DNA from: a virus
IMG/VR virus record: IMGVR_UViG_3300023242_000003
Coordinates: 35,592 to 99,591 of that record
Strand: one strand, 5' to 3'
DNA: 64,000 nucleotides
Shown: in pieces, positions 36,100-37,578 of the stretch
How positions within the stretch are numbered: the stretch's first letter is position 1
How the letters are laid out: each line of letters begins with the position of its first letter
Position numbers and translations under genes: made by a program
Notes under the pieces: model-generated
The model's database searches: none
What the model saw: only the letters and a program-made list of their open reading frames with translations
What the model was told of the DNA's origin: nothing

Positions 36100-37578
36100 A
36101 TGGAAGAATTAAAAAAAATAACTAAATCATTTGATATGTCTGATTTTAGTATCTTAACCGATAGTGGTTTTGTGAAACTTGAGAAACTACACGAAACAAT
36201 ACCTTATCAAGTATATCAACTTAACTTAAATGACGGAAAAGAACTTAAATGTGCGGATAACCATATCGTATTCTATAAAGATGATATGGAAGAGGTCTTT
36301 ATTAAAAATTTATTGGTTGGTGATAAAATCTGTGTTAATGGTGATGATAGTTTATCTGAAGTTGAGGTTATAGGTATAACCAATTTAGGTTACGAAGAGA
36401 TTATGTATGATTTTCAATTAACTGAGGGTTCTAATAGAAGATATTATACTAACGGAATATTATCACATAATACATCTATCGTTGAAGGATTAGCTCAATT
36501 AATTTATGACGGTAATGCACCTAGAACACTCCAAGGTAAAAAAATATACAGCCTAGATTTGGCTAGTATTGTTGCGGGTACAAAATATCGAGGACAATTT
36601 GAAGAAAGAATGAAAGCAATCTTAGAAGAATGTCAAGCTAACCCAGATGTTGTGTTATTTATTGATGAATTACACACAATTGTTGGTGCTGGAAACGCAT
36701 CTGGTTCTTTGGATGCGTCAAATATTTTTAAACCAGCATTAGCTAGAGGTGAAATTCAAATTATAGGTGCCACTACTTTAGATGAGTATAGAGAAAATAT
36801 CGAAAAAGATGGTGCGTTAACTAGACGTTTTCAACAAGTTCTTGTTGAAGAACCTACATTAGAGGAAACAAAAATTATTTTGATGAACATCAAAGAAAAA
36901 TATGAAAAACACCACAAGGTAAAATACACTGAAGAGGCTATTAATGAATGTGTAAAATTGGCTGATAGATATATCATGGATAGAAGTATGCCAGACAAAG
37001 CAATTGACGTGTTGGATGAAGCTGGTGCAACAACTAACATTAGTGTTGATAAACCAGAAATCATCAAAGAACTCGAAGAACAAAAACGTGTTATTAACGA
37101 TAAAAAAATAGATGTTGTTAAAAAGCAAAAATATGAGGAAGCGGCCAAACTCAGAGATGAAGAAAGAAAAGTAATTGAAAGTTTAGAACAAGCTGTTAGT
37201 GAGTGGCAATCTAAACTAGATAATAACATAACCGAAGTTGGTGTTGAGTTAATTTCTGAAGTTGTTTCTATGATGACTGGTATTCCTTTGACTAAAATTT
37301 CTACACAAGAAACTAAAAAGCTTATGGAGATGGATAAAAATCTTATGGGTAAAGTTATAGGTCAAGATGCTGCCGTTGCTAAGGTTGTTAAAGCAATTAA
37401 ACGTAATCGTATAGGTATAAAAGATAAAAACAAACCTGTTGGTTCTTTTATTTTCTTAGGACCAACTGGTGTTGGTAAGTGTATTTGTGGTGATACTCAG
37501 ATAGTTATAAGAAATAAAACTACTGGTTTAGTTGAGGAAATTGATATTAATGAATTAAAAAATAGAATAAAACATTAA
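36100..37578 (+). CDS. clpC: ClpC part 2: 124-aa C-intein + rest of D1, M domain, start of D2 + 32-aa N-intein
   Basis: CADNH...[10 protein letters not shown]|[51 protein letters not shown]|CICGDT...stop. Confidence 0.92.

Follow-up and report, generated by a model that had tools for sequence, protein, structure and literature searches.

Two related, atypically split inteins divide a ClpC-like chaperone gene of a putative jumbo phage into three parts

We analyzed a stretch of 64,000 nt of viral DNA (hereafter, the window), which corresponds to positions 35,592-99,591 of the IMG/VR record IMGVR_UViG_3300023242_000003. In this window, a gene for a ClpC-like chaperone is broken into three genes by two split inteins. 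The breaks are located immediately after the Walker-A lysine in both the D1 and D2 AAA modules. The anatomy described below is nearly certain, and we consider it likely that the locus is a doubly fractured gene from which ordered tandem trans-splicing, mainly between cognate halves, yields a normal ClpC. In the mechanism that we propose, the phage would make the unfoldase as three polypeptides and two protein trans-splicing reactions would join them into one protein of 835 aa, each reaction rebuilding a Walker-A loop (GxxGVGK|T). The whole virus record is 99.6 kb long and its completeness is estimated to be 28%; therefore, the phage genome should be roughly 350 kb, the size of a jumbo phage. 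The G+C content of the window is about 30%.

The three Clp genes and the intein halves

The three open reading frames are encoded on the + strand: part 1 at 35139-35957, part 2 at 36100-37578 (492 aa) and part 3 at 39602-40834. Pfam searches assigned Clp_N and the initial segment of AAA module D1 to part 1, AAA, AAA_lid_9 and a UVR-like middle domain to part 2, and AAA_2 and ClpB_D2-small to part 3. Extein 1 (35139..35840, +; 234 aa) comprises the Clp N-domain (Clp_N, E=1.3e-11), a linker and the first portion of D1, ending at the Walker-A lysine, and is colinear with the intein-free Clp of a related contig, L017. Extein 2 (36472..37479, +; 336 aa) contains the remaining D1, the AAA lid (AAA_lid_9, E=6e-28, together with AAA), the middle domain with the UVR-like motif and the start of D2 up to its Walker-A lysine; its identity to the L017 Clp is 87%. 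Extein 3 (40037..40834, +; 265 aa plus stop) supplies the remaining D2 (AAA_2, E=5.9e-57), the D2-small domain (ClpB_D2-small, E=5.8e-26) and an MGF loop. Directly 3' of part 3, there is a terminator-like hairpin (40840..40863, +) with a 10-bp stem followed by a T run.

When the exteins were joined in silico, the 835-aa product aligned end-to-end with the 837-aa L017 Clp at 83% identity and both junctions were exact. Walker A and Walker B are intact in both AAA modules of the joined protein, and the MGF loop is found in D2. The domains follow the order of a class I Clp/Hsp100 protein (ClpC-like): Clp_N, AAA D1 with lid, middle domain, AAA_2 D2 and D2-small. In the nearest deposited phage, a huge phage of 642 kb (LR756502), the Clp homologue is unsplit, 707 aa long and colinear. 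The three open reading frames together are thus predicted to encode a two-ring ClpC-like ATPase. Shine-Dalgarno-like sequences were not found upstream of positions 35139, 36100, 37913, 38295 and 39602, where the leaders are A/T-rich. Such leaders without a Shine-Dalgarno sequence are typical for hosts such as Bacteroidota.

Part 1 ends with GEPGVGK followed by IntN1 (35841..35957, +; 38 aa plus TAA), which starts with CICSDT and contains Cys1, block A, a beta-hairpin and Asp13; IntN1 is 61-81% identical to the site-1 IntN halves of the relatives L004-L007. Part 2 begins with IntC1 (36100..36471, +; aa 1-124), which possesses blocks B, F and G, Ser17/Lys26 and the terminal His-Asn of an SHN end, and gives a weak Pfam Intein_splicing match. 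The 336-aa extein then runs from Thr to GPTGVGK, and IntN2 (37480..37578, +; 32 aa plus TAA), which starts with CICGDT and carries Lys13, closes part 2. Part 3 starts with IntC2 (39602..40036, +; 145 aa), in which the blocks are the same as in IntC1, an additional N-terminal helical segment is present and positions 17 and 26 are Glu and Asp; IntC2 also ends with SHN and is followed by Thr. The first-pass annotation of this DNA had proposed two paralogous intein pairs with very similar IntC halves, IntN halves that both start with CICxDT, GVGK|T at both junctions and the order IntC-extein-IntN in part 2, and all of these features were confirmed. IntC1 and IntC2 are identical at 82 of 123 residues (67%), IntN1 and IntN2 at 14 of 32 (44%), and the BLASTP match between parts 2 and 3 (E=7e-54) is far beyond chance. 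Because TAA stops follow both IntN halves and the halves of each intein are either in different frames or separated by 2 kb, the split is genuine; a recoded stop codon is ruled out by the same observations.

Both IntN halves begin with Cys-Ile-Cys-x-Asp-Thr directly behind the Walker-A lysine, as expected for the start of a class-1 intein. All splicing residues are present in both inteins: Cys1, the block B His, the block F Asp (in MYD), the terminal His-Asn and Thr+1. The block B His belongs to a family-invariant motif, C-A-D-N-H, in which Ala replaces the Thr usual in most inteins and is itself invariant across the family. The split is located after the first hairpin and helix and before block B, which is the atypical site and not the canonical one. 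A PDB sequence search with the IntC family found CatC (6DSL_B, E=3e-5), gp41-1 and VidaL, and the match to CatN was weak (E=0.36). In the relative L011, the same intein is uninterrupted (173 aa) at the D2 site. The AF2 model of this contiguous intein has pLDDT values of 84-98 in the IntC part and below 50 in the IntN part; when the model was used for a Foldseek search, all top matches listed were inteins, and CatC was found at 31% identity. Judged from these sequence and model comparisons, the two inteins are assigned to the AceL-TerL/GOS-TerL/Cat family of atypically split class-1 HINT domains. Both are probably active in splicing.

The known members of this family (Cat, PDB 6DSL, AceL-TerL and GOS-TerL) have the same split point with an IntN of 25-37 aa and an IntC of 104-122 aa, are inserted after the Walker-A lysine of a phage ATPase and use class-1 chemistry with Cys1, as here; moreover, Cat shares the YYTNG..SHN end with the IntC halves of the window. 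However, their host protein is terminase with Cys at +1, whereas the host protein here is Clp with Thr at +1, and two family members are present in one host protein. The charges in the hairpin turn and the strand also differ between Cat and the window inteins.

In the fractured genes described by Dassa et al. (2009), an N-extein-IntN gene, a free-standing Vsr-like endonuclease gene and an IntC-C-extein gene are arranged on one strand, and one terminase intein among them is broken at the same unusual point (PMC2677866). The layout is the same here, and both are of phage origin. In contrast, those loci possess one break per gene, whereas the Clp gene possesses two, with both endonuclease genes decayed and one interrupted by a methyltransferase cassette. 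We found neither a gene cut by two split inteins nor a Clp host in the account of Dassa et al. (2009) (PMC2677866). In the open-access literature, we found only engineered systems for a gene cut by two split inteins and for inteins in ClpA/B/C, and the natural split inteins that we found described there join two pieces. Thus, the fractured-gene layout and the atypically split family are already known, and the doubly fractured gene, the new host protein (Clp) and the presence of paralogous atypical inteins on one chain are new here.

Distribution and origin of the inteins

A profile search with the IntC halves detected the family in 80 further viral contigs, nearly all of them split at the same site. 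In these 80 contigs, the insertion point is always behind the Walker-A Lys of a P-loop ATPase, and the host ATPases are Clp D1, Clp D2, ClpX-like, TerL, DnaB-like, ABC and clamp-loader-like proteins. A scan of 1.84 billion representatives yielded 877 clusters at E <= 1e-3, and most of the best 150 of these 877 family representatives begin at the same atypical point. An IntC at the N-terminus is combined with an IntN at the C-terminus in 16 of the best 150, mostly terminases. One of the 16 (P0005) is a Clp middle piece like part 2; terminase fragments account for at least 11, and some of these contain an additional contiguous intein. In the terminase middle pieces P0013, P0018, P0025, P0027, P0032, P0053, P0069, P0070, P0111, P0112 and P0148, a family IntC is located ahead of the extein and an atypical IntN behind it. 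Terminase genes are therefore found in three or more pieces. Multi-piece genes, and hence the problem of pair fidelity, are thus recurrent among the phage-metagenome members of this family.

About 85 Clp genes of the phage group were compared. Most have no intein, and the remaining genes carry inteins of type A (the family described here) at D1, at D2 or at both, of type B or of type C. Type A is found at both sites in the window, L006, L007 and L108; types B and A are combined in L058 and L089, and types C and A in L063. Doubly split Clp genes are thus present in at least four divergent phage contigs. The loci with type A at both sites fall at four separate places of the extein tree, across which the intein states are scattered. 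Type B is an atypically split intein with an IntN of 24 aa, inserted in the D1 P-loop three residues upstream (after GEPG), where it leaves Cys/Thr-Gly-Lys; it is carried by L056/57, L058, L066, L076, L080-82 and L089, and the L076 form is uninterrupted (154 aa). Type C is a contiguous intein of 364-366 aa with Ala1 at the exact GVGK|T site of D1 (L010, L019, L029, L063 and L072), and may belong to class 2 or 3. With types A, B and C all found at D1, three unrelated intein types compete for one P-loop. In L046/L054, L009/L023/L024 and L008/L032, exteins that are nearly identical differ in the presence of the D2 intein and its endonuclease; therefore, the intein was either gained very recently by homing or lost precisely. 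These groups offer comparative data on very recent intein gain or loss among near-identical phages.

The main D1 clade of the IntC tree (7 rows) is nested in the D2 clade, with supports of 91/98, 81/88 and 93/98. This topology argues for a D2 origin of the D1 intein, through a move to the paralogous P-loop. The D1 inteins of L067 and L123 fall outside the main D1 clade, and a single origin of all nine is not rejected by the AU test (p=0.276). At the same p value, an independent origin of the L067 and L123 inteins, which would double the evidence from the covariation described below, is not established. The inteins of L127 and of the protein P0012 are distant and invaded the D1 site independently. 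Our proposal is that both window inteins come from one P-loop-targeting lineage, and that the D1 copy would be a D2-type intein carried to its present site by the free-standing Vsr-like homing endonuclease encoded between the halves. The family thus provides comparative data on a P-loop-homing intein that jumps between two paralogous P-loops of one protein.

Between IntC1 and IntC2 of the window, dS is about 1.4 and dN/dS is about 0.17 (0.15-0.19), and both inteins are under purifying selection, which lends indirect support to splicing activity. Different codons are used at 35 of the 83 conserved residues; therefore, there was no recent conversion and the two are old paralogues. For IntN1 and IntN2, dN/dS is about 0.8 over 32 codons, a noisy estimate, which indicates that the IntN halves diverged much faster in protein sequence than the IntC halves.

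Pairing of the intein halves

In the proposed reaction, each IntN would fold onto the disordered N-terminal part of its own IntC. Cys1 would then undergo an N-S shift, after which transfer to Thr+1, cyclisation of Asn and formation of the peptide bond would follow. Because part 2 carries IntC1 and IntN2 on one chain, cross-splicing would be possible in principle, so that the middle piece could be cyclised or skipped. Part 2 had been compared in the first-pass annotation with SICLOPPS, an engineered arrangement in which a target between the IntC and the IntN of one intein is cyclised. The element order agrees with this comparison. However, part 2 does not carry a cognate pair: its halves come from different paralogues (44%/67% identity to their counterparts), possess opposite charge sets and have their natural partners on other chains. 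Part 2 also resembles the middle segment of engineered tandem or three-segment trans-splicing systems with orthogonal split inteins (PMC12707363, PMC7090010), which is likewise placed between the IntC and the IntN of two inteins and for which fidelity likewise needs orthogonality. The engineered systems, however, are built for the most part from unrelated inteins, whereas the window encodes two descendants of one lineage.

One set of residues distinguishes the two pairs in a pattern that may bear on specificity. In the window, pair 1 combines Asp13 in IntN with Ser17/Lys26 in IntC, and pair 2 combines Lys13 with Glu17/Asp26. All nine pairs of the D-type site-1 group possess D13 together with S17 and K26. 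All other pairs possess K13 and E17 (37/37), and D26 is found in 31 of these 37. Among the representatives, contiguous inteins of the family have K13 in 15/15 cases and E17 in 13/15, and Cat, with an acidic DDD turn and Lys at position 17, shows a third complementary state. Residue 13 is located in the hairpin turn of IntN, and residues 17 and 26 face each other across the strands of one IntC hairpin in the AF2 model of L011, a model in which the IntN side of the putative contact between residue 13 and residues 17/26 has pLDDT below 50. We infer, as the simplest reading, an inter-fragment salt bridge between IntN residue 13 and IntC residues 17/26, with inverted polarity in the D1 clade; like charges would consequently meet in mixed pairs. 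Charge reversal is also the design principle of the charge-swapped orthogonal pairs modelled on gp41-1 (bioRxiv 10.1101/546465).

Because a single origin of the D-type group is not rejected, the covariation may rest on one event and reflect hitch-hiking. The site-1 inteins with the ancestral charge set (L127 and P0012) are found only in Clp genes with an empty D2 site, an anecdotal observation (n=2); since they keep the ancestral set, the D1 extein does not impose the charge swap. In the terminase middle pieces, no comparable charge swap was found between the two flanking inteins. A second candidate salt bridge, between IntN 19/20 and IntC 11/12, was dropped because it fails across the family. 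We therefore regard a role of the 13/17/26 charge set as a specificity determinant as a tentative idea.

Pair 2 possesses a helical insert of about 25 residues at the split, which is absent from pair 1, and further clade-fixed differences separate the two pairs. The order of synthesis may also contribute: IntC1 would leave the ribosome some 460 residues ahead of IntN2, so that part 1 could occupy IntC1 first. Because the charge set is reversed, other differences are pair-specific and IntC1 is made this much earlier than IntN2, cognate pairing would on balance predominate. A broader idea is that the two descendants of one atypically split intein are naturally orthogonal through the reversed salt bridge and nearby repacking, and that ordered multi-piece assembly, given how common IntC-extein-IntN middle pieces are in the family (Clp and many terminases), is a general and hitherto undescribed habit of large phages. 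We consider this broader idea doubtful. If it holds, however, such assemblies would be a source of ready-made orthogonal inteins with a short IntN.

The strongest alternative, which we judge to be rather unlikely, is that pairing is promiscuous and that the locus also yields a cyclic 336-aa single-AAA protein, a 499-aa protein from parts 1 and 3 and 1-(2)n-3 concatemers, as tolerated by-products or possibly useful isoforms. The first-pass annotation had put forward these products, and its sizes agree with the extein lengths (336 aa for extein 2 and 234+265=499 aa for exteins 1 and 3). The element order on part 2, the four identical junction residues, the 67% identity of the IntC halves and the core hydrophobic positions common to IntN1 and IntN2 are all compatible with mixed pairing. 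In the AceL-TerL/GOS-TerL family, fragments are reported to associate mainly via clusters of hydrophobic residues, and the AceL-TerL IntN can take the place of the GOS-TerL IntN (PMC11766414); for a different atypical split intein, the large IntC was able to trans-splice with the small IntN of two other inteins (PMC3443213). Thus, one charge reversal may fail to insulate the pairs, least of all against the encounter of IntN2 with IntC1, which is intramolecular and has a high effective concentration. When part 2 alone was modelled with AF2, the strands of IntN2 had pLDDT of 59-76, residues 109-122 of IntC1 (the end of block G) and residues 437-461 were below 50, and pTM was 0.42.

Promiscuous pairing agrees less well with the charge reversal and the other clade-fixed differences, with the helical insert confined to pair 2, and with the contrast in dN/dS between the IntN and IntC halves. 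Furthermore, the double arrangement was assembled at least four times with both inteins under purifying selection, which suggests that the full-length product is still made, and no gene for a one-ring form of this Clp was seen among the about 85 relatives. The first-pass annotation had set alternative products against orthogonality as an either/or question, which is a fair framing. A natural specificity code and protein-level alternative splicing would each be of interest to intein biochemists and phage biologists. Ligation of three pieces is pursued in engineering and requires orthogonal pairs, and inteins with a short IntN are especially sought for semisynthesis. The locus and its relatives supply natural pairs that have coexisted on one protein, and they make the fidelity problem explicit.

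Spacers and remnants of homing endonucleases

In relatives, the spacer between the intein halves contains one open reading frame of 390-520 aa with a C-terminal DUF559/Vsr-like nuclease domain. In the window, the spacer of intein 1 retains a remnant of such a gene (35930..36088, +), consisting of the last ~55 codons and overlapping the IntN1 tail in another frame; tblastn against the C-terminus of the L008 endonuclease gave 71% over 56 aa (E=1e-22). The spacer of intein 2 (37579..39601, +) contains a 23-nt hairpin (37601-37650) just before a 9-codon trace of the original endonuclease start (37638-37664). This trace is followed on the + strand by a 115-aa open reading frame (37913-38260), a C5 DNA methyltransferase gene (38295-39236; Pfam DNA_methylase, E=3.7e-42) and a 113-aa open reading frame with a DUF559/Vsr-like nuclease domain (39229-39570; Pfam DUF559, E=6.8e-5). 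The 113-aa protein matches the endonucleases of relatives in the C-terminal domain only (up to 73% identity), and the N-terminal part of about 300 aa is replaced by the 115-aa open reading frame and the methyltransferase. A same-strand endonuclease gene between IntN and IntC, as in fractured genes, is thus present in decayed form in the window and at full length in relatives. In L108, both inteins are accompanied by intact endonuclease genes, which differ from each other (32% identity). Because both endonuclease genes are decayed in the window, both inteins are probably immobile here, and in our proposal they would now be fixed.

The truncation of both homing-endonuclease genes, and the fact that the IntN1 tail is coded by leftover endonuclease DNA, could instead point to a decaying locus, in which one or both inteins are dead, the open reading frames are what remains of a Clp gene ruined by selfish elements, and the phage uses the host Clp. 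The Clp is absent or unsplit in many relatives and may be dispensable. Against this idea, the three open reading frames are intact with every splicing residue kept, the IntC halves and extein 2 have dN/dS values of 0.15-0.19 and 0.07, respectively, and L007 and L108 retain this three-piece layout in intact form. We therefore consider decay of the locus to be very improbable. Joining at the RNA level, in which the spacers would be self-splicing introns with endonuclease genes and the mature mRNA would encode uninterrupted inteins that splice in cis, draws on the fact that group I introns with endonuclease genes are frequent in phage genes and that Vsr-like endonucleases occur in introns (PMC2677866), but it is scarcely credible, because an Rfam search of 35000-41000 found no intron family at E<=1, spacers of relatives are as short as 20-57 nt, each IntC open reading frame has its own ATG directly behind a stop, and family members trans-splice as separate polypeptides (PMC11766414).

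Short direct repeats, 81-89% identical, are found in the intein 2 spacer at 37785-37802/38265-38282, 37855-37881/38294-38320 and 38261-38280/39257-39276. Their positions around the 115-aa open reading frame and the methyltransferase gene are consistent with inserted cassettes. Within 38295-39570, the methyltransferase gene overlaps the start of the cut-down nuclease open reading frame by 8 nt. The same gene order and the same style of overlap are found for dcm-vsr in E. coli. The two genes may represent a selfish methylase/nuclease pair or a chance result of cassette insertion into the endonuclease gene. In three relatives (L008 8426-9082, L009 9022-9882 and L022 8745-9404), the IntC2 open reading frame is extended at its N-terminus by an unrelated segment to 219-287 aa, and IntC is thus fused to an extra domain.

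Beyond IntC1 and IntC2, no further IntC of the family was found in the 99.6-kb record. At 14516-26031 of the window (- strand), three proteins greatly exceed the usual length: the terminase with 1486 aa, the portal with 1043 aa and the prohead protease with 625 aa. The capsid gene is oversized as well. The terminase, portal and protease contain no member of the Clp intein family, and judging from their lengths they probably hold further contiguous inteins.
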